64,000 bases of DNA from Halichondria panicea (GCF_963675165.1 NC_087378.1:206562-270561); one strand, 5' to 3'; counted from the stretch's first letter, positions 171 through 46,600 are shown. Notes: a model not told the origin generated them from the letters alone. Made by a program: numbers and translations.

Positions 171-392
171 GCTGATGTGTACATCAACTCCACCAATACC
201 AAACTCAACCTGAAGCATGGACAAGTGTCTCAGCTCCTACTAAAGACCAGTGGTGATGATCTACAGAAAGAGTGCTCAGTGCACGCTCCACTGAAGCCGG
301 GACAGGTGGCAGTCACGGGTGCCAAAAACTTGAAGTGTAATAAAATCTTTCACATTGCTCTGCCTAAGTACAAAACAGCCAATTCTGAGAGT
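171..392 (+). CDS. PARP14-like macro-PARP copy 1 (5' truncated by window): exon encoding first half of a macro domain
   Basis: Acceptor ccactag|GCT at 170/171 and donor GTGAGT at 393. The translation (ADVYINSTNTKLNLKHGQVSQLLLKTSGDDLQKEC...VAVTGAKNLKCNKIFHIALPKYKTANSES) is about 90% identical to the copy 2 exon at 16210-16431. It is a macro (ADP-ribose binding) fold. Confidence 0.75.
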
Positions 393-523
393 GTGAGTTG
401 TAGTCTCTCAACTAAAACCTTACATATATATTACACGTACATTGTACTAGGGGCTTCAAATAATCTATTTTACAACCAATTCTATAAGTGATGTGCATTT
501 TTTCGTTGCATCAGTGTGTACAG

Positions 524-787
524 GTTTTTCGAGAAACGGTTCGACAGATTCTTCGCATAGCCAGGAGCAGGAGTGTGTCCTCCATTGCCATCCCATCACT
601 CGGTGTGGCTAATCTCGGCTATCCTGAGAACGTGTCAGCTAAAATCCTGTTCCAAGAGGTCATCACTTTCCATTCCCAGTACCCAAGTTCCATTCAGAAG
701 TTCATCTTTGTAATCTATGAGAAGAATGTGTTCCAAGCATTCAGCAAAGAGTTCGCCCAGCAAATGAGTGGGGAAGCCACTGCACAG
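524..787 (+). CDS. PARP14-like copy 1: exon encoding second half of the macro domain
   Basis: Acceptor tgtacag|GTT, donor cag|GTATGT, both phase 0. VFRETVRQILRIARSRSVSSIAIPSLGVANLGYPENVSAKILFQEV... is near-identical to copy 2 exon 16527-16790. Confidence 0.75.
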
Positions 788-904
788 GTATGTGTGTTAG
801 CATTCATATTTGCTGTTGAATAGTTTATCGTAACTTATAGTAACCATAAAAATGTTGATCAATTATGTAGCCCTGAGAATATCTTAGTGAACCCCAAAAC
901 TTAG

Positions 905-1030
905 CTAATGGTAACAACTGGTGCAGTGGATTGCAGTGCACTTGCAACAGAGAATTGCCAAACAGCAGCAATTGTGGTTTTGCTGTTGGCAATTTTCTGT
1001 TGCGAGTGCACTGCAAGTCTACAACCCACT
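905..1030. repeat. Palindromic MITE-like element (perfect inverted repeat GCAGTGCACTTGCAACAGAGAATTGCCAAACAGCAGCAA / TTGCTGTTGGCAATTTTCTGTTGCGAGTGCACTGC) inside an intron of PARP14-like copy 1
   Basis: A self-complementary hairpin is directly visible. The same arm sequence (GTGGATTGCAGTGCACTTGCAACAGAGAATAGCCAAACAGCA) recurs at 63937-63985. Confidence 0.6.
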
Positions 1031-1077
1031 GTAAAGACAATATCTCTGGGTCATAATTATATGTATGTGGTAGGGGA

Positions 1078-1170
1078 AGAATAGGTGTGGCTTAGTGGTT
1101 AGGGTGGTGGCTTAGTAGATTACATAATAGATAAGGTTTGGGTTCGATTCCCGCTTGGGGATTTTTTCTT
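1078..1170 (+). other. tRNA-derived SINE/tRNA pseudogene-like relic
   Basis: TGGCTTAGTGGTTAGGGTGG resembles a D-arm and GGTTCGATTCCCGCTTGGGG resembles a T-arm, followed by a TTTTTT Pol III-like terminator. No canonical acceptor stem can be folded. Confidence 0.3.
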
Positions 1171-1189
1171 TATTCTCTAAATACATCAG

Positions 1190-1475
1190 CCGATGACCAG
1201 GATTGAAGTGGACTCAGGGACACCAGAGTATATAGAAGCAGTTAAAGAGTTTGAGGAGTCACTGAGAAAAGAAGGTGTCAAATACTCCATCGAGAAGGTT
1301 GAGAAGATTGAGAATATAACTGAGTATGTCAAACACGTTGCTTTAAAAGCCTCCATCAGAGTGAAGAACAAGAAAGACCCTCTAGTGAAGAGGCTGTTCC
1401 ATGGGTCCAGAAAGAAGAGCCTTGAACCGATTGCAGTGCAGGGATTCAACAGAAACTTTGCTGCTGATGCAAATG
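1190..1475 (+). CDS. PARP14-like copy 1: first PARP catalytic-domain exon (contains the H-G-S motif LFHGS)
   Basis: Acceptor catcag|CCG in phase 0 and donor aatg|GTAGAT. PMTRIEVDSGTPEYIEAVKEFEESLRKEGVKYSIEKVEKIENITEYVKHVALKASIRVKNKKDPLVKRLFHGSRKKSLEPIAVQGFNRNFAADANG. It joins exon 524-787 in frame, so this copy skips the macro3-plus-WWE exon that copy 2 has. Confidence 0.75.
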
Positions 1476-1784
1476 GTAGATGAAGTGCTAATTGCATGTA
1501 TAATCGCATGTTGTCCTATTATTTGCTGTGATTCGTACAGTGATTAATTGCGTATCAGTAATTGCACGTCGTCATTAACGACATGCAATTACTGCCTTGA
1601 CGACCGCACGTTTGACATAACTCATAACAAGCACTGGCAAGGTTAATAGCACTCGGCTGCGCCTCGTGCAATTAGTATATCCTTGCCATGCATTGCTTGT
1701 TACTCGTGCTATTAATCCCATATTGCACTCTTAGCCATGCAATTATATTATACCTGATTATACTAATTATCCATCTTTTTCCAG

Positions 1785-2077
1785 CTGCTCGCTTTGGGAG
1801 GGGAGTGTACTTTGCAGTGGAGTCTTCCTACTCTGCCCAGGACAAGTTTGCAGTACCTGACAAGAGTGGCCTCCGGTACATGTTTGTGTGTCGTGTGATC
1901 ATCGGAGAGTATACCCTCGGCAATAAAGGCATGAAGACAGCCCCTCCACTGACACCTGGCTCCAATGCATTTTTTGATACTTTAGTCGATAATGTGAAGT
2001 CTCCAACTATGTTCATAGCCTTAACTGATGCCCAGGCTTATCCCGAGTACCTTATCACATTCAAGAAACTTAAATAG
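1785..2077 (+). CDS. PARP14-like copy 1: terminal PARP catalytic exon with stop
   Basis: Acceptor tttttccag|C; AARFGRGVYFAVESSYSAQDKFAVPDKSGLRYMFVCRVIIGEYTLGNKGMKTAPPL...YPEYLITFKKLK followed by TAA. Matches the mono-ART type PARP catalytic fold. Confidence 0.75.
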
Positions 2078-2435
2078 GATTGTAATTATGTGTGTATATA
2101 GATCTATGTAGTGTGTGTAGATAGGTATAGAAACTGTTATTATAGTGTTAGATAATTATTAGGTACTATTTTGCACTCCTGACAATGTAGTCTATACATA
2201 TTCATTGTTTATAATTATGGCAATAACAATTTTTTTTGTACATTTTTTTGCAATTAATTTGCAATTTTGTCCTACGTAGACTAGAGTCTACCTACATAAT
2301 TATATGTACGTACGGTTAAAGAAAAATAGGCCTGGAACTGAAGGCTAATTGATTCACTTTCAGGATAGCCTTATAGCTGATCATGAAGCGATATGCATTT
2401 CCTGTCAATGGTACCAAAAGGGGTGGATGCATGGG

Positions 2436-2516
2436 CTAGGCTAGTGCTAGTCTCATGAATCAGCCGCACCATTGGTGTCAAAGGTGCGGCTGATTCATGA
2501 GACTAGGCTAGTGCAT
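2436..2516. repeat. Perfect hairpin / short foldback element (about 30-bp arms CTAGTCTCATGAATCAGCCGCACC ... GGTGCGGCTGATTCATGAGACTAG, 13-nt loop)
   Basis: The inverted repeat is directly visible. Confidence 0.55.
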
Positions 2517-2932
2517 GCTGTGGAGTTGAGTATCAATGCAATGCTAATGGTGGTTCCTCAAGGATGGCAGCCACGTAAAAAGCTCCCTGGATCATCAGAT
2601 AGACTTTACACTGTAATGAAAATCTATAGCTATAATATAATAGTCTATATATAATTATAGATCTATAATTTATATATATATAGTAGCAATGTTGCTTTCA
2701 AACTGTATATTTATGCCCAGTGCAGTGTCAAAGATTGTGGCGGAAGATGTTACCAGTATATATCGTGCATTAAAGTCACTAGAAGCACCGAATCAAGGAA
2801 CACAGTTATACATCTTGTAACTATTACAACGAACACCCTGCCGGCAAAGAAAGACAAATTGTTGATCAATCGTGAACTGATCACATGCAGTCAGATCACA
2901 TGTTTTTATATAGCCCCCCTTCAACTGTGGTC

Positions 2933-3017
2933 ATGATGATAGTTGTATTACTTTACTCTCTCTTTCTTCTCCTATTATTGGCTGGAGATGTGGAGCTAAA
3001 CCCTGGACCTAGACTGG
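2933..3017 (+). CDS. Putative first coding exon: hydrophobic leader plus 2A-like ribosome-skipping motif (MMIVVLLYSLFLLLLLAGDVELNPGPRL)
   Basis: ATG at 2933. The canonical 2A consensus LLxxAGDVExNPGP is present. A strong donor GTACGT lies at 3018, giving phase 1. Confidence 0.55.
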
Positions 3018-3119
3018 GTACGTTTCAATTTTCTGTTGAATAAAATATTATGGTCATATTATTGGTACGTTCACTTAATTTAAGTGAACCGATTACTATA
3101 TATAGTGAGTACTTTATAG

Positions 3120-4012
3120 TGAGTACTTTTCGGGGGGGGGGTAAATGTAAATATTCGTGGTTGAGAAATTTTTAACCACAAACGAAGCAATATACTTGCA
3201 GTACAAGTATACAGCTGTTTGCATAGACCTTGCAAAAATAATCAGCTCACTGCATTACCACAAAACCACAAAATCATCATACAATGTTGCTATGCAAACA
3301 ACATGCAGTCCTGAGCAATGATGGGTTCTAGAAGTTGTATATCGGGTACTTTTTGAGTAGACCCTTGAAAAGTACCTGCTATAAGGTGGTATCAAGAGTA
3401 ATGCTTTTATCTACTCTTGGTGGTATGGAAACTCATGTAATTATGGTGAGGTTTGAAGAAGTTTCAGGCTGAAGAAAGTGTTAGTACGAAGTACCTTAAA
3501 CACTAACAGATCACAAAATATTGTTTGGTGCTTATCTAGTAGAAAAATATGTTTGGACTTGATAGTCAAAACCGGTATACCGCAGTGAGCAAGTTAGTAG
3601 GTTCTTTAGCGGAACAATTTTTCTACAGCACAAGTCTCAGCGTAAGGCGTTGGTAAACCATTCTCTACTCAAATCCTCCCGGTTCTATGAGTCTCCATAG
3701 TCTATTCTAGAAGACATGCACCATTGGTCACTTTTTATTTAGTGTGAATGTACCCAATACTGCATAGCAACATTGTATGGTGGTTTTGTGGTAAGCAGTG
3801 GTATTTTGCAAGGTCTATGCAAACAGCTGTAGCAACCAGGAAAATAAGATCCATGAACTTGATTAAATATTGTGTTTTGGTGCTAGCATACTGGACATCT
3901 GTATAACAATAATAAATATGTGGAAGTACAGGTCAGGCTGGGTGTTTTAGTGAGAATTATGCTTATTCAATCACGAATATTTTGCCCCCAGGAAATTACC
4001 CGCTATACGGTA
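3120..4012. mobile_element. Composite MITE: outer element with TIR family TACCGTATAGCGGGTAATTTTCGTGG, carrying a nested foldback (about 100-bp inverted arms at 3195-3300 and 3755-3840)
   Basis: The right end CACGAATATTTTGCCCCCAGGAAATTACCCGCTATACGGTAT matches the ends of copies at 7195-7237 and 13345-13378. The internal arms are reverse complements (GCAGCTGTTTGCATAGACCTTGCAAAA...ATGTTGCTATGCA). Confidence 0.55.
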
Positions 4013-4034
4013 TGTTATTATCATTGTGATGCAG

Positions 4035-4304
4035 ATACTATTCTGACTCTTTCTGATCTCCTTGAGGTGTATGAGAAGGCGCGGAGTGCTGGTCCAAACT
4101 GGTTCAACTTGGGACTGGTGTTGAGGCTGAGTTACGGAAAGTTAACAAACTTCCGTGATACGTATCGTGACAATGATGTGTGCCTGCGTGAAGTCCTAGC
4201 ACATCGGCTACAGTCCGGTGGTACTCTAACTTGGGGAGACATGTGTACTGCTCTCAGGCACTCAACAGTGGAGAGAAATGATGCAGCTGAAGCGATAGAG
4301 GAAA
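4035..4304 (+). CDS. Death domain exon (DTILTLSDLLEVYEKARSAGPNWFNLGLVLRLSYGKLTNFRDTYRDNDVCLREVLAHRLQSGGTLTWGDMCTALRHSTVERNDAAEAIEE)
   Basis: Acceptor ttatcattgtgatgcag|AT in phase 1, compatible with the 2A exon, and donor GTAAGT at 4305. The W..LG..LG..LS, DW and LW spacing is typical of a death-domain six-helix fold. An alternative in-frame acceptor exists at 3950/3951. Confidence 0.55.
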
Positions 4305-4540
4305 GTAAGTGGCTGCATTTTATTCACTATTATGTATATATGCTATAGAGTATTTGATTTGAGCATGCATAACTTTATAATTCATGCTTCCCATAATGAT
4401 TACTGGATATTTACATACGCATGCACATAATTATAGGTTGTGAGAGAGAAGAATTTGAGGTAAGAAATTAAAATTAATATTGTTTTTCCGGGATACCTGA
4501 TAACATATCTGCATGTGTGACTATTATTATTGGTACAATA

Positions 4541-4700
4541 CCGTATAGCCGGTAATTCGGGGGACAAAATACTCTTGGTTTTCGTGGTTGAAGTTCTGAC
4601 CACGAATATTTTACCTACGATAAAGCGACCTTGACTATCTTTACCTGCAGTGCAATCAGCAACCACGAAAATATTATCCACGAAATGTTCATTATCATGC
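4541..4700. mobile_element. MITE copy (same family, 5' TIR CCGTATAGCCGGTAATTCGGGGGACAAAATACTCTTGGTTTTCGTGG), 3' truncated
   Basis: Shares the internal GACCACGAATATTTTACC...CTTTACCTGCAGTGCAA...CAACCACGAAAATATTA segment with the 7052-7237 copy. Confidence 0.55.
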
Positions 4701-6529
4701 CGTATAATCATGCGCTCATGCTTTGGTTTAAGAACATTATTGAAATGTTCATACGAATGCATTTTTCATAATGCTATCAGTGAAGTATCACAGGCTACAA
4801 TTAAGACTTGTATATATGAAAGCACCGCAGGTGCTGACGCCTCGGTGAATGTGTCAAAGTACAATCATGAACTAGGGAGTATGGTAATAGAACAGGCAAA
4901 TATTCAATGAACTCTAACACTGTAAAAGTATCAGGACTGTGACCTTACTCTGTGTGTGTGTGTGGGGGGGGGGGGGTACCTCTCTTGAGTCCCCTATAGT
5001 GTTGATGTCTAGCAGTATCTCTCTACAGCCACTCAGACAGTGGTATAAAGTTACTAGTTGTTGCCAATACACATAGCACATGCCACTGATGATGCATTAA
5101 TTTTGTTGTATGCTAATTTGTGTTTGCAGGAAAACGATTGATGCTAAAAATGATGCTAAAAGTACAAAGTCTAAAATAATGGCTGCATCAGTACACGTAC
5201 AGTAGCCTTGTGCAGCTCTCTTCTCACTCTTGTAGCTACCAATAGTTAGTGCAGAGCTAACTACTATAAGTAGAGTAGCAACACTTCATGGATAAGTGTT
5301 GCTACGAACTCTTCTGAAAAGGCTGCAATTAATGGTATTCCAAGTACTAAGCAAACTAGGCATAACTCGAGAACCATGTAAGCATTATTTTGCAAATCCA
5401 CGAATATAAAACATGACTAGAAGCCTATAGAAACTCTTACTTGGACATCATTGATCCTTAACGCATGAGCAGCTGTAGCAGTCTACACAGACACACACAC
5501 AAACACACTACCGTATACCTCACTTGCGCATGCATAATAAACCTTGGTACGAGACCGAGAGTATTTGCATGGTGGGCGTACTTTCGAGTAAAACCTCACC
5601 GTTTGAAATATATAATGTCCAGTCTTGTCTGTAATGGCTAAAGTTCTTGCACAAAAGGGTGGGCGTATTTTTGCGAGGCTACAGTAAATAATGTCATTAT
5701 CATTATCACCTCAGATCACATTGGCATATGCTTTCGTATGAAAATGTCTAGAGAGAAGCTTCAATTCTATGAGCATTCTAAAGCTGATCAAACTTAACTA
5801 TAAGGGTATATATTCTAGATCATGGTGCTGTTAGGGATAGTGGATAAAATGTATGCGTGCAGTCACTGTTTGTCCTTATACATGCACACAGATATCACGA
5901 AGCACAAATGCAAGTGAGACATCAAGCGGTAAGATGTTATACTATACTATATAAGCGTTAACATTAAGCCATGTAGATAATAATAAACGTATATATACCA
6001 GTCTACTATGTATGTAGCCTTAGCCTTGCGTCAAATCAATCGTAGGTAATATCAATATTATCCTGGTATATTGACCACATCCTGGGCGATATTTATAATT
6101 TATTACCAGGAGCATATGAGGAGGAGGATCAAGATGGGGCGGCTTACTACGTATTGCTAGGATATTTTGCTGGTGAAAAACCTTTGCGAATGAGCCAAAT
6201 CAGCAGAAAATTTGACCCTTTGCGATCTAACTATTGCGTTATGGCAAGGATCGTGTGTATTTACTAGTAATAATTTAGGTTTTACAGATTTTATTGTTGC
6301 AAATTGATCAACCATCGCAAATGTTTGATGCTCACTAGTAATATAGTATGTATGCAAACCGCCATATCATTTTATGATATTCACTATTATTAGATAAACG
6401 CATTATATATCATCCGCACATGTACAGAGCACTTAGCACATTACAAACAAGGAAATGTGGTTATACGATAGTGAATCCGCAATACTATGCATAGTATCAT
6501 TTGCTCTTGATATTACCCAGGCATGTACA

Positions 6530-6990
6530 ACAGTATTACCGTACTCTACCAAGATTACGCTCACCCTAATTGCATGCTACAAAACAGCTAGGTGGGATGG
6601 GCTTAATTTCGAAAACAGTGAGTTTTGCCTCGAAATTAAGCCCACTCATTAAGAAAAATACAAGTAATACATTGGTAAAGTAGCTAAGTATAAAGAGTCA
6701 AGATTCTGCATCAGAAGGTTGTTCCTTGTCACTGCCAGAGTCTTTAACAGAGATTCAGAGAAGATTGTCCTTGTCTCTTTATACTTGCAAATAGGATCTA
6801 GCTATATCTAGCTATATTCAGAGCTAACCAGCGTACACAATAAACTTTTTCTTGACAACTTGCTCACTGACAAATGCATCACTTCCTGGTGGGTGTATTC
6901 TCAAGGCAAATATGCAGGAGCTTTCGCTCAAAAGTTAGGGTGGGCGTAATTTCGGATGTGGGTGTAATCTCGGTAGAGTACGGTACGGTA
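6530..6990. repeat. Foldback-type repeat: inverted arms at about 6530-6575 and about 6945-6990, plus a local hairpin at 6590-6650 (GGGCTTAATTTCGAAAAC / CGAAATTAAGCCC)
   Basis: GTATTACCGTACTCTACCAAGATTACGCTCACCC is near the reverse complement of GGTGGGCGTAATTTCGG...GTGTAATCTCGGTAGAGTACGGTAC. Confidence 0.4.
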
Positions 6991-7051
6991 CAATCCTTTG
7001 ATGTTTGACCACAATGAATAATGAGCAAGCTTACCACTGCATGCATGCATA

Positions 7052-7237
7052 TAGAGGGTAATTTCATGGGGCAAAATATTCGTGGTTTTTGTGGTTGAAG
7101 GTCTGACCACGAATATTTTACCCACGAATGAAGTGACCTTGCTTACTTTTACCTGCAGTGCAAGCTCCAACCACGAAAATATTACCCACGAAATACTTCC
7201 CGAAAATTACCCGCTATAATTATACGGTATTAACTTT
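7052..7237. mobile_element. MITE copy with right TIR CGAAAATTACCCGCTATAATTATACGGTATT
   Basis: Same family as 4541-4700 and 13183-13378. Lies in the large intron upstream of exon 7334. Confidence 0.55.
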
Positions 7238-7333
7238 GCGGGTATACATAAATATCATTGTGCTATAGTATTATACATGCATTATACCACACAGTATTAT
7301 ATTATTGATACTTACACTTAAATTTTCATGCAG

Positions 7334-7896
7334 GTGCAAGCAGCCAACTTCAAGTCTCAAATATGCCTCCAGTAACAGACAATTTAGAACTAGATTCGAC
7401 ACAGATGGAAATCAAGTTCAACACTCTTGTGTGTCAGCTATGGGATTCACTTGAAACTCGTAGAATTGCAAAGGAATCTGTAGTTGCTTGCTTGATGGGG
7501 TTTAACTGTTTAAAGAAGGTGTTTTGTGGAAGAAATCAATGTGTTTTTAGAACTCAAAGAAGAAATCTAGATCAATGCTCAACTATCGCAGAAATTTTGC
7601 GAATTATTGCTGACTATTTCTCCTTCTTTGGCTATGATATTATTGAGCAGATTACAAACAAATTAGGAACGGACGAGGATAAAGACCATATGAAACTCTA
7701 CAAAACCAGTTTTATAAGGTATGCTAAGAGGCGAGTAGTGAAAGGGAATATTAGTTCAGGCTCCGGAGAAAATGTGATCGTAAAGCTTGATTCTACTTAC
7801 GACAATTGTGAAGTGAGTCGACTGAAGCTATTCGAGTGGAATTTATGCTCAATCTTGAACTTAAATGAGGGTGTTTTAAAGCTTTGTAAAAATTGA
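7334..7896 (+). CDS. C-terminal coding exon (about 187 aa, unknown domain; ...NMPPVTDNLELDSTQMEIKFNTLVCQLWDSLETRRIAKESVVACLMGFNCLKK...LKLCKN*)
   Basis: Acceptor tttcatgcag|GT. An open frame runs from the acceptor to a TGA at 7894. A phase-1 start makes it compatible with the phase-1 end of the death-domain exon at 4304. Confidence 0.4.
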
Positions 7897-9392
7897 AGAT
7901 GGCTGTGTCGAGCTTACATTTGTATTGCCGATTTTCATAACAAAGGATATCTTCCCACTAAAACCGGATCAAGAAAATGCACTACAGCGTCAAGGGGTCA
8001 TCGAGCTACGCTGTGGGAATACTTATAAAGCTGAGGTGATTTATACCTTAAATTGTTCTCAATTAGGGACGTAATATCTCGTATAATTATTGTCTGCAAC
8101 CTCCGATTCTATAGTAATATCTGATTCAATTATAAGGGGGATTTGTGAGCGTACATGCAAAGTGTAAGCTATAAATAATAGCTAAACCTGGTTTAATTAT
8201 GCCAGTGCATGGTGCCTATAAGTTATTATAACTGCATGCATGGACTATAGTATAGTGCAGTTGTGACAAAAATTAAGCAGCTAGTACAAGCCGTATATTG
8301 CATTGTGTTTCTAACTATCATGCGAAATTGTATGCCCATGCACGTACATGCATGCATGCTCACTCTTTGCGTGTCTTTTGTGTGTAATCTATACAAAAAC
8401 TCAAATAGCCTCGTATTTGAAACCCAGCATAATAATTATTTTGTAACAGTTTAGAATCTGCTGTAAACTAATAATTATACATGATAGCTTGATTCTGTAA
8501 TGCATCATTGCTCTGACACTTGTCTGCATGTTTCAAGCTTATACCATACACTGCATGCATGGGTACTAAATGTATAGTAACTCTCAATATATAAATGCTG
8601 TAGGGCTTAAAGGGTGAAGCTGGCAATGCGTCGCTTTCAGGTGAGTCTTTATATAGTATTGTTGACAGGATACTTTCGTGAACCTAATAGAGGTGGGATG
8701 AATTTGCCTCAATATTATAGACTGATTTGTTTTTTCATTGTGCTGATAACTGTAATATATCCGCCCTGGAAGCACCAAGAAACGCTCAGAAATGTATTAA
8801 GCTTGGTTAGAAGCATAAAGCATGCTCCAAATCTTTAATTGAAGCTGGAAGTTAACGCCTTCAAGTAGAAAGAAGAATGGCTGAGAAACGTAGTTGCTTA
8901 AAAAAGAGGAAAAATAGCCAGAGGAACATCATGCACGCTAGGCTAGAAATGCAGAAATTTTTTGATTGGATAGCAAAAGTTCTTGCAGAAACATTATAGA
9001 CTGAGCTACCAATACATCAGGATCACAGCAGACTCGACTATAGTAATTATAGCATCAGCGCTTAAGTAAATTAGCACTACATGTATAAATTATACTACTA
9101 GCAAAAATTGTCCGCTTTTAAATGAACACTCTGAACTCGTACACATGACAACTAGCTTTTATGTCATTATACCTGGAGTCAAGTGCCGTTTGACTCACAT
9201 TGAAGGCTGTTGCAGTCTCTTCATAGCATCATCCGTTCCTTCCAAAAAGTACTTCTTTTAGTACTTTTAGGCTAGTACTGCACTGCTGTACAGAAATTAA
9301 CCCTACAGTACAGATAATGCAGAACTCTAGGTGACAGTCCACTGCTGCATGCTGTACATTATTTAATATTAAAATAATCGACCCTTTTGCAG

Positions 9393-9692
9393 ATAAGGAC
9401 GTACCTGTGCAAAATTCCCCTCCACGCTCCAAGCCGAGGGTCTCCCGGCCTAGAACAGCACCCTCACAGCCTCTGCCCCCCTCACAAGTAGCACTACCCT
9501 CACAAGCCCCACCTCCACCCAGGCTAGGGGTGCTCGTGGAAGCAACCCAACCGATTACTACCAATGACAATGCTGGCATGCTTAGATGGCTTCTTGGAGG
9601 GAGGGTAGGTGGCGAGGACAGAGTGAGAGAGATCATTGTGTCTCAGGACAGGAGCAGGGCTATTGTGGAGTTTGTTAACCCAGACCCAGGAG
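9393..9692 (+). CDS. RRM-like repeat protein, exon 1 of visible part (Pro-rich, then RRM-like MLRWLLGGRVGGEDRVREIIVSQDRSRAIVEFVNPDPG)
   Basis: Acceptor cccttttgcag|AT and donor GTATGT at 9693. The motif resembles the N-terminal RRMs of PARP10, PARP14 and DTX3L. Confidence 0.55.
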
Positions 9693-9810
9693 GTATGTTG
9701 CTTTTAGAATATTGCACTGTATTATCGGCGGGGGAGGAGGGGGGTGTATATTGAAAGCTAGCTATGAATTTATATTTGCCATTGTTCATAACATAATTCA
9801 TCTCCTACAG

Positions 9811-10050
9811 TCATACAGCAGCTGGTATCCACCAGTGCTGACCTCCTTGACCCCCTCTCCAAGCAACCACTCCGTCTAACTCAGATCGACCTGACTACCC
9901 TCTGCCTCGTAGTTACAGGCTTTCCACCATTTGTCTATGAGTCAGCTCTAGAGAGCCACTTCCGAAGAGAAGCTGATGGCCAACAGATACATTCTGTACA
10001 GATGTCAGCTGACAAAGAGTCTGCAATGATCACCTTCATGTGTCCTACAT
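9811..10050 (+). CDS. RRM-like repeat protein exon (second RRM-like: LCLVVTGFPPFVYESALESHFRREADGQQIHSVQMSADKESAMITF)
   Basis: Acceptor tctcctacag|TC, donor GTGAGG at 10051, phase 1 to 1. Confidence 0.5.
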
Positions 10051-10099
10051 GTGAGGGCTGTTCTTATGCTATAATTTATTTCACTGAGCATCTATGCAG

Positions 10100-10384
10100 T
10101 TGCCATGGAATTGGCTGGAAAGAAAACACAGCTGTTTGGTTTTAATCTCCATCTTGAGCTTGGCTGCAATAGTACTACAAACAGTTCTCCAGCTTATCCT
10201 ACCTCGACAGCTGTACACAGCTCTATTGCTCTGTGTGTGCAAGGACTCCCTGAGACCATGCTGAACAACCTACATATTTTGTCAGAGGCTTTAAAATATT
10301 TTATCAAACAGGGCACAGGTTTTGAGGCAGCTGACTGTAGCATTGTGCAAGGACTGGGTTATCTGACATTCACCGATCCATCAG
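10100..10384 (+). CDS. RRM-like repeat protein exon
   Basis: Acceptor tctatgcag|T, donor GTAAGT at 10385. FAMELAGKKTQLFGFNLHLELG...GLPETMLNNLHILSEALKYFIKQGTGFEAADCSIVQGLGYLTFTDPS. Confidence 0.5.
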
Positions 10385-10451
10385 GTAAGTGGGTGACTAC
10401 AATATCAAAACCCATTAATTTTGCATCTCTGCATGTACGTGTACGTTACAG

Positions 10452-11021
10452 CTGTACAAGCCATTGTGAACAACCCACCCACCCAAAACTTCATGTTTGA
10501 CAGTATCCTGCACATGTCTGCAACTTCACAACCTCTTGCTCCGTCTCAAGTCCCCCCTACTGCTCCGAGGGAGGCTTGGGGGGTACATGACACACCCATT
10601 GACAGGCAACTCCCAGGAAATACATCTCCTCACTTGGAGAGACCACCTGTGAGACCCACGAACAGACCACCAGTACCACACCGAAGGCGTTTTGCAAGTG
10701 AGGGAATTGATGGCCCATCACCAAGCAATAGAAGACAGCACATCCACCCTAGGAATCAACCTCAATGGCATTATCAAGGAGACCAATATCCTCATCACCA
10801 GGGACCACAACAACACCAGTCTTACTATGGGCCCATGCATCATAGTGCATCCTATCCTGATAGTATGGGGACCACTACTCCAACATCGTACGGTCAGCAG
10901 CTGCCCTATCCCCCCTACGGATATCCCCCCTATTCTGGCCAGCCTCAGTGGGGGGGACAGGACGCAACCATCGCTGTGCAGTCTGGGGCACCTCAGGTGC
11001 GTGTACAAGGCAGCCAACACG
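10452..11021 (+). CDS. RRM-like repeat protein exon: long Pro/Gln/Tyr/His-rich low-complexity region (...PYPPYGYPPYSGQPQWGGQD...)
   Basis: Acceptor gttacag|CT, donor GTATGT at 11022. It is a 190-codon open frame of strongly biased composition. Confidence 0.5.
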
Positions 11022-11195
11022 GTATGTTTGATGTTTATCATTAAAATTAATGATTATTGTAGTGTTGGGGGGAATTCCCTGGTAAAGTCCCTAGGCTACC
11101 AACATTCCTGCGTACCAATTTTGGTATTGTGGTAATACCCATTACATGACTTGCTTCATTATGCCTCGGTGCGCATGCGCAAGCAAGGTATACGG

Positions 11196-11197
<2 letters not shown>

Positions 11198-11252
<55 letters not shown>
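11198..11252. repeat. (TG)n microsatellite (about 27 units) in an intron
   Basis: Direct observation. Confidence 0.9.
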
Positions 11253-11253
<1 letters not shown>

Positions 11254-11798
11254 ACTGCTACAGCTGCTCAAGGATCAATGAAGTGCAAGTAAGAGTTTCT
11301 ATAGGCTTCTAGTTATGTTTTCTTGGATTTTGATTCGTGGATTTGCAAAATAATGCTTCGTTCTCGAGTTATGCCTAGTTTTGCTTACTTGGAATGCCAT
11401 TGCAGCCTTTTCGGAAGAGCACGTAGCCAAACTTGTTTACCGAGTGTTGCTACTCTACTTAGTAGTTAGGTCTGTACTAGAACGCTAGCTATTGGTAGCT
11501 GCAAGAGTGAGAAGAGAGCTGCAAGGCTCTGCTGATGGCAGCCATTAATTTTAGACTTGAACTTTGGCATCGATCGTTTTTAACAACAATCATGGTCGAT
11601 CATTACCCACTCTTTGAGTTTGCGTGCAGACATGCAAATTAAAAAATGTTCATCATGTGTATAAAATTCAGCTTTATGTTATGTAGTTTTGGCATCTCCA
11701 CCGAGGCATCAGCACCTGCGGTGCTTCATTCTCTACTGTTTTGTTATAATGTTGTAACCTGTGGTTATGTTTTCACTGAGTGTTTTTTCTTATTCCAG

Positions 11799-12040
11799 GC
11801 CCACAGAAGGTTGCCCACCACCACCCGCCAGCAAATGCCATGGCTACAGCACCAACTGGTTTGTGTCGGAAGGTTAAAGTCAACGATCTCCCTAAAGAAG
11901 CTAGAAACCAGACTGTTCTGAAGTTGTATATCCAATCCCTAGCAGGCCTAGGGTCGTCGGTTGCCAGCGTGGAAATGTTTAACCCTTTCCTTGCCATTCG
12001 TGAAATCTGGAACAGGAGCGTCTTTAGGTCGATCAATTAG
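11799..12040 (+). CDS. RRM-like repeat protein terminal exon (RRM-like KVKVNDLPKEARNQTVLKLYIQSLAGLGSSVASVEMFNPFLAIREIWNRSV), stop TAG at 12038
   Basis: Acceptor tttcttattccag|GC in phase 1, continuing from 11021. Confidence 0.5.
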
Positions 12041-12704
12041 TGTGGATCCGGCCTCACCACGCCTCCAAGTCATTCTATTAGTCTAGATCCGGCTAGCAAT
12101 TCTAGCTGGGACTCCCAGTTCTAGCTCCTTTTGTTTAGCGTGTCAGAGACTGGGAGAAGATGATTGGCACTCCCTGGCTCCTTTGGATGTACAGCTGTCC
12201 AGATCCCTAGAACATACCCTCCATTCTGACGAGTTATCAGTGCATAGGGTGCTTACTAGATTCTTGCCAGCCAGTACAGTTCAAGCTACACACAGCACCG
12301 CTCAACTATTCTCTACCCCATTATCTAGCTAAATCTGGTCCAACTAGACAGCAGACACAGCTAGTTAATTCAGTAAAGCCAGGGGTAGCCCTACTTCTAC
12401 GGTTGTTCAGTACCCACGGTAACAATTCCTCTGGGCTGGGCTAACTAGTTGAGCCACGCCTCCCAATTCTCAAGGCTAGGTACATGTCTCTGTCTAGCTG
12501 CTTCTTCAGCTTCTTGCTCAGTTTTGTGGCTTAGAGAAAGGCCAGCTACTCAGGGGGAAGAGTCCAGATGAAAGTCTGGCAGCCAGGTGACGTCCAAACG
12601 GTCAGTTATTCTTTCCACCAACTTTTTAATCTAGTCTAGTCCTGCTTGCACTGCTACTACTACTGCTGCCTACTGCTGCTACTCTTCCTAGCTAGTCAAA
12701 GGTT

Positions 12705-12731
12705 TCTTTTTTTTTTTTTTTTTTTTTTATA
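12705..12731. repeat. poly(T) run of about 27 nt
   Basis: Direct observation. Confidence 0.9.
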
Positions 12732-13182
12732 ACTACATATGCACAAAGAGACATCAAAGCTTACATCAAAGGACACAGATTTTTAGCCTACTTGACTGAT
12801 AAGGCGGTTACCTAGACTACAGTTTGTTTGTCAGGGAGGAGCTCACATACAACTTCATCTAATTCATCATAACGATTCCTTACCCATTGTTGTAATTTCT
12901 ACAACAGATTGCCAAGGAAAGAGATAGGACAGTGCTGTTATCACTTTGGAAAATCTTACAAGTTAGTTACTCATAAATTGTGCACACATGCAATGTACAC
13001 AGCATTCTCTGACCAGTATGACCAGTACAATTAAAGTGGTTAGGTCGCATAAGGTATCTTTGCAGTAGTTGGTGTCTATAATTATGCTGTGCCCCTTTTG
13101 TCTTCTACATGTATAAGGTATCTTTGTGTACATACATGTAATAGTACATGCACATATACATGTATAATTATAATATATATAC

Positions 13183-13378
13183 CGTATAGCGGGTAATTTT
13201 CGTGGGATAAAAAATTTGGAAAACGGTGGTTTTCGTGAGTAAAAATTTCGTTGCCTGCACTGCATTCATATGTTCCGGTAAGCCACGCCTACGTTAAAAT
13301 TTCGTGGAGGTCATCTTGCCCACGAAAAAAACGAATTTTTTACCCCACGAAAATTACCTGCTATACGGTAATTATATT
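13183..13378. mobile_element. Complete MITE (about 195 bp) with 26-bp terminal inverted repeats TACCGTATAGCGGGTAATTTTCGTGG ... CCACGAAAATTACCTGCTATACGGTA, about 70 bp upstream of the first coding exon of PARP14-like copy 2
   Basis: Both TIRs are visible. The internal sequence is AT-rich with repeated TTTCGTG motifs. Confidence 0.7.
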
Positions 13379-13445
13379 CATGCACACTTCTGATAATATA
13401 ATTGCTATAATTACATACAGTCAGATAATTATCTTGATCTTGCAG

Positions 13446-13676
13446 ATATGAACAGGGTTCTCGAGTTGTCTAGGACGAACCCATTGGAGGGTGTGGTCCT
13501 TGCCCTGTCTGCCCTCGAGCCATCAGATACAGTCCTCGTCTCTGGCCTCAATGACACCACTCAAGATGTCCTCGTCAAGTTGATGCTGGCTGATTATATC
13601 AAGCAACACGACTCTGTTGAATCTGTGAAGCGGATCTCTCCCACCCACGCATTGGTCATCTTCAAGTCCCCTAACA
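13446..13676 (+). CDS. PARP14-like copy 2, first coding exon (ATG at about 13448; RRM-like MNRVLELSRTNPLEGVVLALSALEPSDTVLVSGLNDTTQDVLVKLMLADYIKQHDSVESVKRISPTHALVIFKSPN)
   Basis: An acceptor (cttgcag|AT) lies immediately upstream, so a 5' UTR exon is likely. Donor GTGAGT at 13677. Confidence 0.7.
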
Positions 13677-13730
13677 GTGAGTCACACTGAAAGCTTAAAC
13701 TGTTTAGCAATTAAAAACAATCCATTACAG

Positions 13731-14779
13731 GTGTTCAGAAAATGATAAGCATGACAAGCACTCCACTAATTGAAGTTGAAGGATTGCAACTTTATGTGAA
13801 GGAGCACTATCCGTTTATGGACATTAGTGAAATACTTGACCCATCCTCAACAAAACAAGATGATCCTCTGAAGCCTAACGATCCCCCCACCCCCACCAGT
13901 ACCCAGGTGGTGGTACACAGTTCACAGAGGGACCCACTCACGGAAGAGAAACACTTTTATCTGAAGAACAGCCTCCCTGAGTTCAACGATGCTCTGCAAT
14001 CACTGAAAGCGTGTGCTGATATTGAGAAAGTTGGGAAGGAATATTTTGTGGTGATTTCACCTCTTAAAGGCTCTGGCAGTATTGATGAATGGAAGGACAA
14101 AGTTGCTGCAGCTCTACAAAAACACTTCGAAGAATTATCGATTGAGACGATTAATTTTCCAAATAAGGAGGCAATGGCAGATGTCTTAGTTTTAATTTAC
14201 GATCAAAGAGATTCGGTTCTAGTCGCTGAGAAGAATCCCAACTCCTTTGTTATAGCTGGTCACAAAGAAAATATTATCAACGTTTATGAGAAAGCAACAG
14301 AAATTTGTAAACAATATCAAGTTACTATTCGTGTGATAGAGCTCCCTCGGAAACGTGTGAAATTCTTGGAAAAGTTCTACCACCACGAGTTCCAGAAACT
14401 AGTTAATAAAACAAGTGTTCATGCCATTCAGTTCAACACAGACAATGGATTGATTACTGTAACAGCCAATCCCCCCGGCCACACCGAAGTTGACGAAGTG
14501 GTTGAGCAAAAGAACACACCAGAAGAGAAATCGTTACAGATGTCTCAGATGGCCTATAAACTACTTTCCTCTCAAAAAGGTGCGGAAAAGTTAAATAGTA
14601 TCTCTGGTCGACAAATTGTGTACCATATGGAACAAGTTCAAATCCCAGGTGATGTGCAGTATTATATTCGCTTTCTCTCTAAGGATGTGGAGGTTCTAAA
14701 GAAGGTTAAGGAAAGTGTGAAGTTGTATGTCCATGAGGTGGCGTTTGAAACGAGGCCTGCTAAGATACGAGTGTCATAG
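13731..14779 (+). CDS. PARP14-like copy 2 large exon (KH-like/linker region), ends at an in-frame TAG at 14777 because of an apparent frameshift
   Basis: Acceptor ccattacag|GT in phase 1. A 349-codon open frame. Confidence 0.7.
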
Positions 14780-16011
14780 CCACACTCAGTGAAAAGCATT
14801 TTGTGTCCGTTACTGCTCAAGAAGCTTCAAGCTCGATTATCGTTACCGGTGAAAAACTTGCCTGTAATGACATCAGTAAAAAGGTACAGAGCTTTCTAGA
14901 GAAGCACACTAACATTGAGGAGTGTGTGACAGTCAGTCAGAGCGAATGGTTTGTTGTAAAGGGAAATTTTTGCAACGAGGTTAAAGAAATAAACGATCAA
15001 TTGAAGAAGAAGCAAGTCAAAATCGAGTGGCCTAAACCTAATCTTAATGTGTCTTCCCTTCCGATTGTTATCTCTGGAGAGCCTGGGGTGGTGGACGACA
15101 TTAAGGAACAAATATCACTTCTCTTAAAGAAGGTGTGCAAGAAGGAGTCACGCATCACTGGTGTGCCAGCTGCCGTGCATGTGCTCGAGAGTATGGAAGA
15201 CAAACGGGGTCTCCTAGAATCAGATGAGAAAGTTCAGATCGAAGTAACTCTTGAAAATGATGATACTAACGAGGAGCTAGAGGCAGCTGCTCAAGTGGAA
15301 GGTGAACTCCCCCGGCAAGTGTGCGCTGGGACTTCCCCCAGTGGATCACGGGTGTCCGTTTACACTGGAGACTTTGCCCAAAATGCTCCCGTAGGAGTTA
15401 TTGTGAATTTCATCACGTCTGATCCAAACACACAAGTTGGATGCCTCAAACATCTCCTTGAATCTGGAGGAGCTGATGCAATGGAAGATTTTAAACGAAA
15501 AGTATTGCAATGCATGAAGCTTAAACCTGGTAAGGTGTTCAGGACACGTCATGGGCAGCTTAAGTGCTCACAGCTGGTTCACTGCGTCTTGCCATCTTGG
15601 AGAACTGCTACAGAGACTGAAGCTAACAAAGAGTACTTCCTCGAAGAAGCTTTGTACGATGTTATGAAAGACACTGCACACACTGGGTCTATTCTGATCA
15701 TCCCTCTGACCTCTGCCCCCCTCCACTATCCTGTCAACACGTTTGTACGACTCGTCATGGATGCTGCTACTCACCAAACTAGTTCAAATCTGCAAGTCTC
15801 CGTCTATGTCGAGGAATTTCATCATGCCAACGAGTTTCAGGGTGCTTTTCAGACAAGGAAGTACCAAATTCATCAGAAGGTACCACTGGGTTCACCATTG
15901 CTGGCTGCTAAGAAGGAAAGACCTTCCCCTCTGGCTGCTAGTGTCAAGACAATCGCCAGTAACCTTGGTAACTTCATCACTATAGTCAACGGAGACCTGC
16001 TACAACAACAG
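14764..16011 (+). CDS. PARP14-like copy 2: continuation in the +1 frame; contains macro domain 1 (APVGVIVNFITSDPNTQVGCLKHLLESGGADAMEDFKRK...GKVFRTRHGQLKCSQLVHCVLPSW)
   Basis: The frame is open from 14764 with no internal ATG for 120 codons, so it must be read through from the upstream frame. Donor cag|GTACAC at 16012. Confidence 0.65.
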
Positions 16012-16209
16012 GTACACTGACTGAGAGGGCTTGTACTGTGAAATTACTGTTAGATTCATTTGTACCATGATATTATTATATAATGATATAATATTGTGTT
16101 AGTGAGTATATATAGCGCCAAGAGAACTATGTTGTTAGCATTACAATTATTTGAGGTATGTACCAATTTCACTAACTCTAACGTTAATATTTAATTACTG
16201 TTCCACTAG

Positions 16210-16431
16210 GCTGATGTGTACATCAACTCCACCAATACCACACTCAACCTGAAGCAAGGACAGTTGTCCCAGATCCTACTAAAGACCTGTGGTGATGAAT
16301 TACAGACAGAGTGCTCAGAGTATGCTCCACTGAAGCCGGGGCAGGTGGCAGTCACAGGCGCCAAAAACTTGAAGTGCAATCAACTCTTTCACATTGCTCT
16401 GCCTGATTACAAAACAGCCAATTCTGAGAGG
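16210..16431 (+). CDS. PARP14-like copy 2: macro domain 2, first exon
   Basis: Acceptor ttccactag|GCT, donor GTGAGT. Paralogous to 171-392. Confidence 0.8.
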
Positions 16432-16526
16432 GTGAGTTGTAGCCTCCGGAATAAAGCCCCTCATACATCTATATATGCTAGGTATAGGGGCGATTCTAAT
16501 GGTACACTGTTTTTCATTGTGTACAG

Positions 16527-16790
16527 GTTTTTCGAGAAACGGTTCGACAGATTCTTCGCATAGCCAAGAGCAGCAGTGTGTCCTCCATTGCTATCCCATC
16601 ACTCGGTGTGGCTAATCTTGGCTACCCTGAGAACGTGTCAGCTAAAATCCTGTTCCAAGAAGTCATCGCTTTCCATTCCCAGTACCCAAGTTCCATTCAG
16701 AAGTTCATCTTTGTAATCTATGAGAAGAATGTGTTCCAAGCGTTCAGCAAAGAGTTCGCCCAGCAAATGAGTGGGGAATCGACTGTACAG
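16527..16790 (+). CDS. PARP14-like copy 2: macro domain 2, second exon
   Basis: Acceptor gtgtacag|GTT, donor GTATGT at 16791. Paralogous to 524-787. Confidence 0.8.
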
Positions 16791-16950
16791 GTATGTTAAC
16801 ATACATGTACAATTGTAAGCAACCATTTGATCGATGGCCCTGAACACTGGTAATTAACTGTGCAGAGATGTACATGCATGCAAATTGTTTAGAGTAAACC
16901 ACAAGTCTTGTTAATGGTTCTCGTGTCAACTGCACATGACTTTTACACAG

Positions 16951-18214
16951 GCATCTCCAATGGCTTCTCTCCCAGTAACCCCGCCCATTGGGAGCACCAC
17001 CCTCATAATAGCTCAGGGAAATATTGCCGAGGAGTCGACTGACATCATCGTTAACACTACCTCTGAGGATATGACACTCAACAAATCCGCCGTTTCCAAG
17101 GCAATTCTTGAGAAGGCTGGTGATGAGCTACAGAAGATATGCAAACAGTATGTTGAAAATGGAATGCGATTGGATCACGGGCAAATTGTTGTTACATCAG
17201 CTGTTGGGAAGCTCCGCTGTAGAAAGATAATCCATGCCCACGTACCTCACCAAGGGTCAATAGCAATGTCATCCACTCACCACTGCCAGCTCATTGAGAA
17301 GATTGTTATTGACTGTCTACAAAAAGCCGAACACGAGAAAACAAAATCGATATCTTTCCCAGCCTTTGGTTTGGGAGGGGGTGGTTATTCGGTTGAGCAA
17401 GTAGCCGAGCCGATGCTCAAAGCCTTTCAGAAGTTTGGGCAGACACATCCACAATCTGTGAAATTGATAAGAGTAGTTCTTTACGATCCAGAACTGTACA
17501 AGCAGTTCAATGATTTCTACTACAAATTCTTTGGTCGCAGTCCATTAGATCCCAGTCCACCACCCCCTATAGCTAGTTGGTGGAACCCCTTTGCCAGTGG
17601 TAGTCATAAGGTCAACAGCGAGGGTCAAGAGATTCAGGCAGGAGGTGTGGCTTCACTTAAGGCTCCACTCCTTCCACAATCCATACCAAACTCCACAGTT
17701 ATCTTCACAATTTTTGCTGCCTCCGATGCCCACTGTGATAAAATTGAGAAAGATTTTACAAAGTTAATCAAAGAAAACTACACAACGAAAAAAATTGTGA
17801 GTACCCACATTGAACAGCTGATTGATGACGATTTTAAAAATATATTTCAAATCGGGAAACAGCATGGCGTTCAAGTGAAAATGGTGGTCAAAATAAATGA
17901 GATTCACATTTCTGGGGAGATATCTAAAGTTAAGGAAGCTCACAGTGAGATTCAACAGATTTTGAGGGATTTCTCCATGATTGAGCTTTGTGATTTTGAG
18001 TGGTTGAGTGTAGACGATGATGGGAGGTATAACGCCTACCCCCCAGCGGCTAACATGAAACTAGAGCGTGCCTTTAACAAGGATCTGAATGCTATTGAAC
18101 TGATTGTGAACAATGTTGTCGTGGTAATTGATATCCAAAACAAAATGGAAACGGACAAGACAACTGGAAAGAGAAGGAATATTATGCGTGCTAAGAATGT
18201 TATGGCATCAGTTG
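16951..18214 (+). CDS. PARP14-like copy 2: macro domain 3 plus WWE domain exon
   Basis: Macro: IIAQGNIAEESTDIIVNTTSEDMTLNKSAVSKAILEKAGDELQKICKQY...GQIVVTSAVGKLRCRKIIHAHVP. WWE: IELCDFEWLSVDDDGRYNAYPPAANMKLERAFNKDLNAIELIVNNVVVVIDIQNKMETDKTTGKRRNIMR. Donor GTGAGT at 18215. This exon is absent from copy 1. Confidence 0.8.
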
Positions 18215-18369
18215 GTGAGTGAGTCTATGCATGTGTGTTTGTTCCAGTAAATTTCTGTTATTCTCTCATGTTACTCCCCTCCTCTGGTAGCTACTAGCTA
18301 ATATTATAATAATTATTTTGTGCTCCCTAAATAAATTATAAAATGTCCTACGCTTGTTTAATTATACAG

Positions 18370-18705
18370 ACTTCCCCCCCACATGGGAGACCCCCCACAG
18401 CACGGGTGGTAAGAGAGAGCCAATGACCAGGATTGAAGTGGACTCAGGGACACCAGAGTATATAGAGGCAGTCAAAGAGTTTGAAGAGTCACTGAGAAAA
18501 GGAGGTGTCAAATACTCCATCGAGAAGGTTGAGAGGATTGAGAATATAACTGAGTATGCCAAACACGTTGCCTTGAACGACTCCATCAGAGTGAAACACA
18601 AGAAAGACCCTCTAGTGAAGAGGCTGTTTCATGGGTCCAAGAAAGATAGCATTGTACGAATTGCAGTACAGGGATTCAACAGAAACTTTGCTGCCGATGC
18701 AAATG
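18370..18705 (+). CDS. PARP14-like copy 2: PARP catalytic exon 1 (LFHGS)
   Basis: Acceptor aattatacag|AC in phase 1, donor aatg|GTAATT. Confidence 0.8.
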
Positions 18706-18793
18706 GTAATTAGATTATTAAAGTGTTGAAGTGAAAAATTTTACATACTCTAAATGCATACTTAATTTTTCTCTCGATCTATATATTTTCCAG

Positions 18794-19086
18794 CTGCTTA
18801 CTACGGGACGGGAGTGTACTTTGCAGTGGAGTCTTCCTACTCTGCCCAGAACAAGTATTCAGTACCTGACTCGAGTGGCCTCCGGTACATGTTTGTGTGT
18901 CATGTGATCATCGGAGAGTATACCCTAGGCAACAAAGACATGAAGATAGCCCCTCCACTGACACCTGGCTCCAATGCAGTTTTTGATACTTTAGTCAATC
19001 ATATGAAGCCTCCAACTATTTTTGTAGCCTTGACTGATGCCCAGGCTTATCCCGAGTACCTTATCACATTCAAAAAACTTAAATAA
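18794..19086 (+). CDS. PARP14-like copy 2: terminal PARP catalytic exon; TAA at 19084 overlaps the AATAAA signal
   Basis: AAYYGTGVYFAVESSYSAQNKYSVPDSSGLRYMFVCHVIIGEYTLGNK...YPEYLITFKKLK*. Confidence 0.8.
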
Positions 19087-19087: not shown

Positions 19088-19273
19088 GTGTCTCTAGGTT
19101 TTATAGGTAAAGTAGGTATATAGAGACTGTTTAGTGGAACTAATTTCTAGCCTGAGGCCGTTGACTGAATTTATGTTGGTACAAGTACAATCTATGTAGT
19201 AAGATTTTATTGATAAAATACTTGTCCATTCATATATACTGCAGCTGCCACTTTCGTACAAAAAACAAACACG

Positions 19274-43267: not shown

Positions 43268-46600
<3,333 letters not shown>

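Follow-up and report, generated by a model that had tools for sequence, protein, structure and literature searches.

Two PARP14-like macro-PARP genes lie in tandem on the same strand of a 64,000-nucleotide (nt) stretch of DNA from Halichondria panicea (GCF_963675165.1 NC_087378.1:206562-270561), which we call the window and from whose first letter all positions are counted. We think it probable that they are two members of a tandemly duplicating demosponge PARP14-like family that undergoes birth-and-death evolution, and that each copy has been damaged in its own way. Copy 1 lacks the exon for the third macrodomain (macro3) and the WWE domain, and its reading frame across the deletion depends on a candidate new splice acceptor. 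What is new here concerns copy 2, the apparently 'complete' gene: as read from the sequence, it is this copy that bears the clear disabling lesions. An earlier note on this DNA had reported tandem same-strand PARP14-like paralogues (171-2077 and 16210-19086) whose domain complements differ at the genomic level; this description holds, and its exon coordinates are correct, with a GT/AG boundary at every exon.

Exon models and family identity

The window sequence is eukaryotic, with short GT/AG introns. It opens 170 nt upstream of the first visible exon of copy 1, and this gene is visible in part only. Comparison of the window with itself yields three blocks of homology between the copies, 125-793 with 16162-16796 (84%, an intron included), 1188-1478 with 18418-18708 (92%) and 1777-2076 with 18786-19085 (92%); there is no third PARP14-like copy in the 64,000 nt. 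As relatives we used the contigs L001, L002 (GCA_022075345.1 JAKCWI010001171.1) and L003 (GCA_022075345.1 JAKCWI010008260.1), which belong to one assembly, and L004 from another. The macro3-WWE exon has counterparts at 60-75% identity among the open reading frames (ORFs) of unannotated sponge-type assemblies, and the exon order of copy 2 is kept in L001, L002 and L004 over the extent of each contig. The visible exons of copy 1 and the C-terminal exons of copy 2, four of them common to both, are the following, where ART stands for ADP-ribosyltransferase.

171..392, + strand: copy 1 macrodomain exon a; AG acceptor and GTGAGT donor, 90.1% nt identity to 16210-16431, Pfam Macro
524..787, + strand: copy 1 macrodomain exon b; 95.8% nt identity to 16527-16790, conserved splice sites
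809..1187, no strand: copy 1 filler segment of 379 nt; no homology to L001 between 808 and 1188
1190..1475, + strand: copy 1 truncated ART exon a; 91.3% nt identity to 18420-18705, in frame with the exon ending at 787
1785..2077, + strand: copy 1 ART exon b and stop codon; gene model, alignment to PARP15/PARP14 structures
16210..16790 (16210-16431, 16527-16790), + strand: copy 2 macro2 exons; gene model, Pfam, PDB matches
16951..18214, + strand: copy 2 macro3, KH-like and WWE exon, 1264 bp; Pfam Macro 4e-19, WWE 2.4e-8
18370..19086 (18370-18705, 18794-19086), + strand: copy 2 ART exons; PDB matches to PARP15/PARP14/PARP10, gene model

The copy 1 model is stop-free over its part in the window and encodes 354 amino acids with Macro and PARP domains in Pfam; the C-terminal part of copy 2 is also stop-free and encodes 792 amino acids with two Macro domains, WWE and PARP. 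Over the 1065 coding nucleotides of the shared exons the copies are 92.1% identical, and their amino acid identity is 87.0% (309/355), with 88.9% in the macrodomain and 85.5% in the catalytic part. The more than 90% amino acid identity claimed earlier was overstated, since only the nucleotide value passes 90%.

The exon at 171..392 is macro2-like, its best PDB match being PARP14 macro2 (3q71, 2e-23), and it starts with ADVYINSTN. In copy 2 the preceding exon supplies, at its end, the first strand of macro2 (…ITIVNGDLLQQQ, joined to ADVYINSTN). Because this beta-strand comes from a preceding exon, a functional copy 1 would need at least one further exon upstream of the window.

The ART domain matches the structures of PARP15 (2.8e-35), PARP14 (6.8e-34) and PARP10 (about 1e-25), and the Pfam PARP domain is found in the two copies at 7e-18 and 1e-17. 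The copy 2 exon at 16951..18214 matches PARP14 macro2/3 and PARP15 macro2 in the PDB at about 1e-17, and the macrodomain in the large exon further upstream matches PARP14 (3vfq, 2e-14). RRM_PARP14_3 is detected in copy 2 at 9792-10070 (26.6 bits, cutoff 24), and KH_PARP14_5 gives a weak match of 15-21 bits, below its cutoff of 23. Since RRM-like and KH-like segments, three macrodomains, WWE and ART are all found, copy 2 would appear to have the PARP14 domain order. Within the window copy 1 has a single macrodomain. The WWE domain, which lies between the last macrodomain and the ART domain of copy 2 (2.4e-8), is missing from copy 1 and has left no remnant there, so that copy 1 is PARP14-derived but not of PARP14 architecture.

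In PARP14 and PARP15, the ART domain at the C-terminus has an H-Y-hydrophobic triad and uses NAD+ to transfer ADP-ribose as single units. Their macrodomains bind ADP-ribose or take it off, and the WWE, KH and RRM modules add further ligand and RNA contacts. Alignment to PARP15 places the triad H in LFHGS (exon 1190-1475 in copy 1) and the Y in GVYFA (exon 1785-2077). In third position, copy 2 and L001 carry I (PTIFVAL), whereas copy 1 carries M (PTMFIAL), a change that polarisation with L001 assigns to the copy 1 branch. The triad check proposed in the earlier note gives H-Y-I for copy 2 and H-Y-M for copy 1. Under the H-Y-E rule a triad without glutamate denotes a mono-ADP-ribosyltransferase, and because the glutamate is missing both copies are predicted to have mono-ART activity. 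On the copy 2 branch, four nonsynonymous changes fall in five codons (326-330 of the shared alignment, window 19000-19030), turning DNVKS into NHMKP just before the third triad residue. This cluster and the I-to-M change of copy 1 may hint at diversification around the active-site rim, on numbers too small for a test.

The related contigs place the two copies in a wider family. L002 has a complete gene at 670-9261 and the start of a second gene (10363-11918) 1.1 kb after its stop codon. The gene in L003 ends after the WWE exon, and another gene starts about 0.7 kb later; this L003 paralogue (2476-3601, 4838-5566) is without the macro2 exons between macro1 and macro3 and has no ART exons before the next gene, and looks like another exon-scale domain-loss variant or a pseudogene. 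Because of the tandem genes in L002 and the losses in L003, tandem arrays and exon-scale losses appear to be general in this sponge PARP14-like family. The two Halichondria copies are closer to each other (92.1% nt identity) than either is to L001 (89%), so they were duplicated after the split from the L001 lineage or were homogenised by gene conversion.

Deletion and candidate acceptor in copy 1

Copy 1 can be aligned with L001 as far as 808 and again from 1188 on. The first ART exon of copy 2 starts at 18370 (…tatacag, followed by ACTTCCCCC…), and its homology to copy 1 starts at 18418, 48 nt inside the exon; measured from the point equivalent to 1188, the start of the catalytic exon lies 48-54 nt upstream in copy 2 and L001. 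Because homology resumes only 48 nt inside the catalytic exon, copy 1 is without the ancestral acceptor and 16 codons (DFPPTWETPHSTGGKRE). What it has lost runs from the end of the preceding intron through the 1264-bp macro3-WWE exon and the following intron to the native acceptor and these 16 codons; about 1.6 kb (copy 2 about 16799-18417) have been swapped for about 0.38 kb of unrelated sequence.

According to the earlier note, a divergent macro3/WWE segment hidden between 788 and 1189 would speak against a loss of the exon. No such remnant is found in 788-1189, where a sensitive tblastn search has its best E value at about 1 and blastn returns chance matches of 9-15 nt, neither rising above chance, and copy 1 indeed lacks this exon. 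The earlier view of a clean exon loss, as opposed to a degraded pseudogene, is unproven, since the original acceptor and 16 catalytic-exon codons were also deleted and the join from 787 to 1190 relies on a candidate new acceptor. Likewise 'domain reshuffling' overstates what is a deletion only. The difference between the copies is genomic, which supports paralogues rather than splice isoforms.

The filler contains a hairpin at 931-1016 with 31-nt arms that are 94% complementary, and one arm recurs at the far end of the window at 63937-63989 (97.7% over 44 nt). Further short, near-perfect palindromic hairpins lie at 2439-2513 and 1556-1594, the former giving only sub-threshold matches to microRNA families (mir-138, 35 bits against a cutoff of 50). 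These short palindromic hairpins of the window are probably repeats resembling miniature inverted-repeat transposable elements. A transfer RNA at about 1085-1160 was considered and rejected, as ARAGORN finds none in the window and Rfam gives only sub-threshold hairpin and microRNA matches.

The AG at 1188-1189 (…tctctaaatacatcag followed by CCGATGACC) aligns with exonic sequence in the relatives, gagag followed by CCAATGACC in copy 2 and caagag followed by CCGATGACC in L001. It lies in former exon sequence and is preceded by a T-rich stretch of the filler; as a CAG after a T-rich tract, it is no weaker than the other acceptors of copy 1. All other splice sites of this copy are intact. The exon at 524..787 ends in phase 0 (…GEATAQ), and the join to 1190 is in frame, as the earlier note had it, with phase 0 on both sides and the ancestral frame kept (…GEATAQ joined to PMTRIEVDSG…). 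This AG may serve as the acceptor. The ART sequence retained in copy 1 begins where the alignment to the PARP15 and PARP14 crystal constructs begins, from beta-strand 1 onward, and for this reason the catalytic core should be complete.

Lesions in copy 2, selection and rival explanations

The N-terminal half of copy 2 can be followed over four further segments.

9393..11044, + strand: exons 1-4, approximate limits; 79% nt identity to L002 670-2306 and 10363-11918
11789..12962, + strand: exon 5, RRM-like, interrupted; L001 and L002 contiguous across the insertion point
13446..13676, + strand: exon 6; 81% amino acid identity to L001 and L002, splice sites read from the sequence
13731..16011, + strand: large exon 7 with KH-like segments, macro1 and the first strand of macro2; ORF and multiple alignment

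Exons 1-4 hold RRM-like repeats and a Pro/Gln-rich segment. At 9395-9397 copy 2 reads AAG where both L002 genes have an ATG start codon directly after the acceptor, and no in-frame ATG is found upstream of 9395 within that exon. Exon 5 is interrupted by an insertion of about 0.94 kb (about 11982-12926), into which reading continues for 17 codons before a stop. The insertion has imperfect 20-nt terminal inverted repeats (TAACCCTTTCCTTGCCATTC and GATTGCCAAGGAAAGAGATA, arms at 11980-11999 and 12907-12926) with TA ends and looks like a small DNA transposon; there is no second copy of it in the window. The third lesion is a 25-bp deletion at 14774/14775 in exon 7, within the KH5-like match, which shifts the frame onto a TAG at 14777-14779. 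In the multiple alignment the 25 nt are present in L001, L002 and L003, and exon 7 is a single ORF of 772-785 amino acids in L001, L002, L003 and L004, against 345 and 405 amino acids in copy 2. We considered a cryptic intron as a rescue of this frameshift; 311 GT..AG combinations would restore the frame, as chance would give, and none has a pyrimidine-rich acceptor, which leaves the idea unsupported. The C-terminal half (14803-19086) is open with good splice sites. Measured against three or four paralogues of a related sponge, copy 2 can hardly serve as the intact reference for which it had been taken: it has lost its start codon and carries a 0.94-kb exon insertion and a 25-bp frameshift with a premature stop. 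The simplest reading is of a young pseudogene, or of a gene that can now make its product only in an N-terminally truncated form.

The shared exons have nevertheless been under constraint. The nonsynonymous substitution rate divided by the synonymous one (dN/dS, or omega) between the copies is 0.41, with a synonymous divergence (dS) of 0.153. When L001 is used to polarise the changes, 16 synonymous and 26 nonsynonymous ones fall on the copy 1 branch (omega about 0.47, one-sided binomial P=0.016), and 18 and 20 on the copy 2 branch (omega about 0.32, P=0.0006). There is no indel in the 1065 coding nt, against 13 and 23 gap events in two introns. Both copies have been under purifying selection for much of the time since duplication, a signal that does not date the lesions. 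The omega of the C-terminal exons of copy 2 is 0.32 and not near 1, the value for relaxed selection; because of this, either the copy 2 lesions are recent or its C-terminal part is still used.

We favour the following course of events. The gene would have been duplicated after the split from the lineage of the related sponge, with a dS of about 0.15 between the copies, and each copy would then have been damaged by a different route. In copy 1 the replacement of about 1.6 kb by about 0.38 kb of unrelated sequence removed the macro3-WWE exon together with 16 ART codons, and the in-frame AG of the former exon, lying after the T-rich filler, may have been taken as acceptor. Macro2 would thereby be fused straight to the ART core to give a WWE-less, PARP15-like reader-writer enzyme. 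Copy 2 has kept the full C-terminal set (macro1-3, WWE and ART) and carries three lesions in its N-terminal half; it may be a young pseudogene, or at best a gene for an N-terminally truncated protein. A number of points weigh against this scheme. One AG in three would be in frame by chance, the upstream part of copy 1 lies outside the window, and the deletion could be recent, in which case the purifying signal would pre-date it. No transcript-derived protein crosses the 787/1190 junction in a collection of 5.8 billion proteins that includes transcript assemblies, from which the source genome is seemingly absent; the closest match there is a genomic ORF of another species (73% identical). As to copy 2, the stronger constraint in its C-terminal exons fits poorly with long-standing pseudogene status, the start-codon comparison involves two genes of one genome and an upstream coding exon is possible, and the frame lost at the 25-bp deletion could formally be recovered by cryptic splicing. 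Finally, the window may contain assembly errors.

Copy 1 could instead simply be dead, the deletion having destroyed the gene and the frame of the AG being a coincidence, with exons still intact as the lesion is young. The native acceptor is indeed deleted, the filler holds repeat and hairpin sequence typical of non-functional DNA, and reading through from 787 meets a stop at 821-823. The higher omega and the I-to-M change in the triad both fall on the copy 1 branch, the missing transcript evidence would be explained, with the reservation already made about that collection, and L003 shows that disabling-looking exon-scale losses do occur within the family. We nevertheless hold this to be rather unlikely. 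All four exons keep an open frame and conserved GT/AG sites and are free of indels, of which the introns have many, omega on this branch is significantly below 1, the candidate acceptor is at least as strong as the others of the gene, and the ART core is retained from beta-strand 1 on in the PARP15 structure alignment. A bolder version of the scheme that we favour can be put forward tentatively: copy 1 may be an expressed and active WWE-less macro-ART enzyme that arose in sponges independently of mammalian PARP15, an exonic AG at the 3′ breakpoint of the deletion having been made into a splice acceptor. It would then be a compact reader-writer effector of ADP-ribosylation that evolved convergently at the two extremes of the animal tree, caught soon after the event.

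Another possibility is that both copies function and that the lesions of copy 2 are bypassed by an upstream start exon, removal of the insertion as an intron, cryptic splicing or an internal start, or else are assembly or haplotype-specific errors. The strongest purifying signal, that in the shared exons of copy 2 (P=0.0006), and the wholly open C-terminal half with its good splice sites speak for this, and an acceptor stands before the AAG, so that an upstream exon is possible; frame-restoring GT..AG pairs also exist. Still, it seems quite improbable to us, as three independent lesions would have to be explained, each missing from two to four relatives, and neither a 25-bp deletion nor a 0.94-kb insertion flanked by inverted repeats is typical of consensus errors. 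Moreover no rescue intron with a pyrimidine-rich acceptor is available, and any rescue would delete conserved KH or RRM sequence. That the tandem itself is an assembly artefact, with haplotypes or a collapsed or expanded repeat set placed in a row, could be suspected from the 92% nt similarity and the same orientation. This we regard as extremely unlikely. The copies differ by 8% in coding sequence, by many intron indels and by a 1.6-kb structural difference, their 3′ flanks are unrelated, 7.3 kb of unique sequence separates them, and a tandem arrangement is found independently in L002. The assembly duplicates that the earlier note had named as a possible refutation are ruled out by this divergence, the structural differences and the unique flanks. 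The reading to which we return below remains that of two differently damaged members of a duplicating family.

Neighbourhood and relation to known macro-PARP families

Nothing in the related sponge contigs corresponds to the 7.3-kb spacer between the copies; tandem copies there are separated by about 1 kb. Directly after a signal-peptide-like hydrophobic stretch (VVMMIVVLLYSLFLLLLLAG), a canonical 2A-like ribosome-skipping motif (…LLLLAGDVELNPGP) occurs at about 2999 (window 2880-3030, + strand). Its NPGP is the sole one in the six frames of the window and lies between copy 1 and a death-domain-like ORF (3920-4348, + strand), whose match to the Pfam Death domain is weak and under the cutoff (E=0.041, 14.5 bits). 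The ORF at 7363-7896 (+ strand, 177 amino acids) has no Pfam match. Downstream of copy 2, a harmonin (USH1C)-like gene occupies 19274-23067 on the minus strand and encodes a harmonin domain at the N-terminus as well as a PDZ domain; its position 3′ of the PARP14-like gene is kept in L001, and the spacer between the L002 genes contains a copy of the segment 3′ of copy 2 (19220-19768, exons of the PDZ gene, minus strand). A beta-TrCP (F-box/WD40) gene, roughly assembled from exons at about 52500-55400 (minus strand), is 91% identical to the Halichondria panicea beta-TrCP-like protein, 72% to that of Ephydatia muelleri and about 65% to bilaterian and cnidarian proteins, which by itself places the source of the DNA among demosponges near Halichondria. 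A (CA/TG)n microsatellite of about 800 bp at 43300-44100 coincides with a dip in GC skew to -0.44, and a shorter (CA)n run lies at about 11230-11270. There is also an ORF with Thr/Pro-rich, mucin-like tandem repeats (TVTELATTGPATT units) and, after them, a transmembrane-like segment; exons for Calx-beta repeats are found at the end of the window (57288-58119 and 62638-63710, minus strand). Interferons are not known in sponges. The interferon-type, immune or antiviral role proposed in the earlier note for this locus, and its link to the 2A and death-domain ORFs, would rest on analogy with vertebrates (PMC4038475, PMC13224862).

PARP14-like genes are often duplicated and frequently adjacent on the chromosome, and the six PARP14-like proteins of Amphimedon queenslandica have from one to three macrodomains, WWE or RRM being present in some only (Perina et al. 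2014, PMC4245714; restated by Kar et al. 2026, PMC13224862). Tandem sponge PARP14-like duplicates with variable domain sets are thus already published, and our case is a further instance of that pattern. It shares with the PARP14-like families of early metazoans and amphioxus the duplicated neighbouring genes and the variable macro, WWE and RRM sets. It differs from the published Amphimedon and amphioxus families in belonging to the Halichondria-side lineage, in that events are visible at the nucleotide level (deletion with filler, candidate acceptor, frameshift, insertion), and in having at least one apparent pseudogene among its members. Specific to our case is this nucleotide-level view of how domain sets diverge.

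Copy 2 and its relatives would appear to have, with RRM-like and KH-like segments, the order (RRM-KH-macro1-3-WWE-ART) of human PARP14, which is a mono-ART with a hydrolase activity in macro1 (PMC10499325). Overall identity to annotated animal PARP14-like proteins is, however, about 28%, the triad is H-Y-I in copy 2 and H-Y-L in human PARP14, and the KH matches of copy 2 are under the Pfam cutoffs.

PARP15 arose within mammals by partial duplication of PARP14, and PARP14/15 genes have been gained and lost recurrently (Daugherty et al. 2014, PMC4038475). Like copy 1, mammalian PARP15 is a tandem neighbour of PARP14, has its macrodomain or macrodomains directly upstream of an H-Y-hydrophobic ART domain and lacks WWE; in copy 1 it is macro2 that stands directly before ART, the region upstream of macro2 being outside the window. 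Vertebrate WWE-less macro-ART proteins align over 99% of the copy 1 model. A scan of metagenome contigs of the Joint Genome Institute (JGI) for relatives of copy 1 gave one distant match (26% identity). The origins are independent, however, and copy 1 is not a PARP15 orthologue: it is closest to copy 2 (92% nt identity) and only about 30% identical in amino acids to vertebrate PARP15-like proteins. In PARP15 it is the N-terminus that was lost, with macro2 and macro3 retained, whereas the loss in copy 1 was internal and took macro3 and WWE; the third triad residue is Leu in PARP15 and Met in copy 1. The likeness is one of architecture only.

For annotation the locus carries a warning: of two paralogues, the longer and 'complete-looking' one may be broken. 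Should copy 1 be expressed, it would provide a record at nucleotide resolution of a macro-PARP that lost reader domains while staying in frame, and an independent sponge parallel to the mammalian transition from PARP14 to PARP15. It would then also support a fast turnover of macro-PARP families across animals, possibly driven by pathogens.

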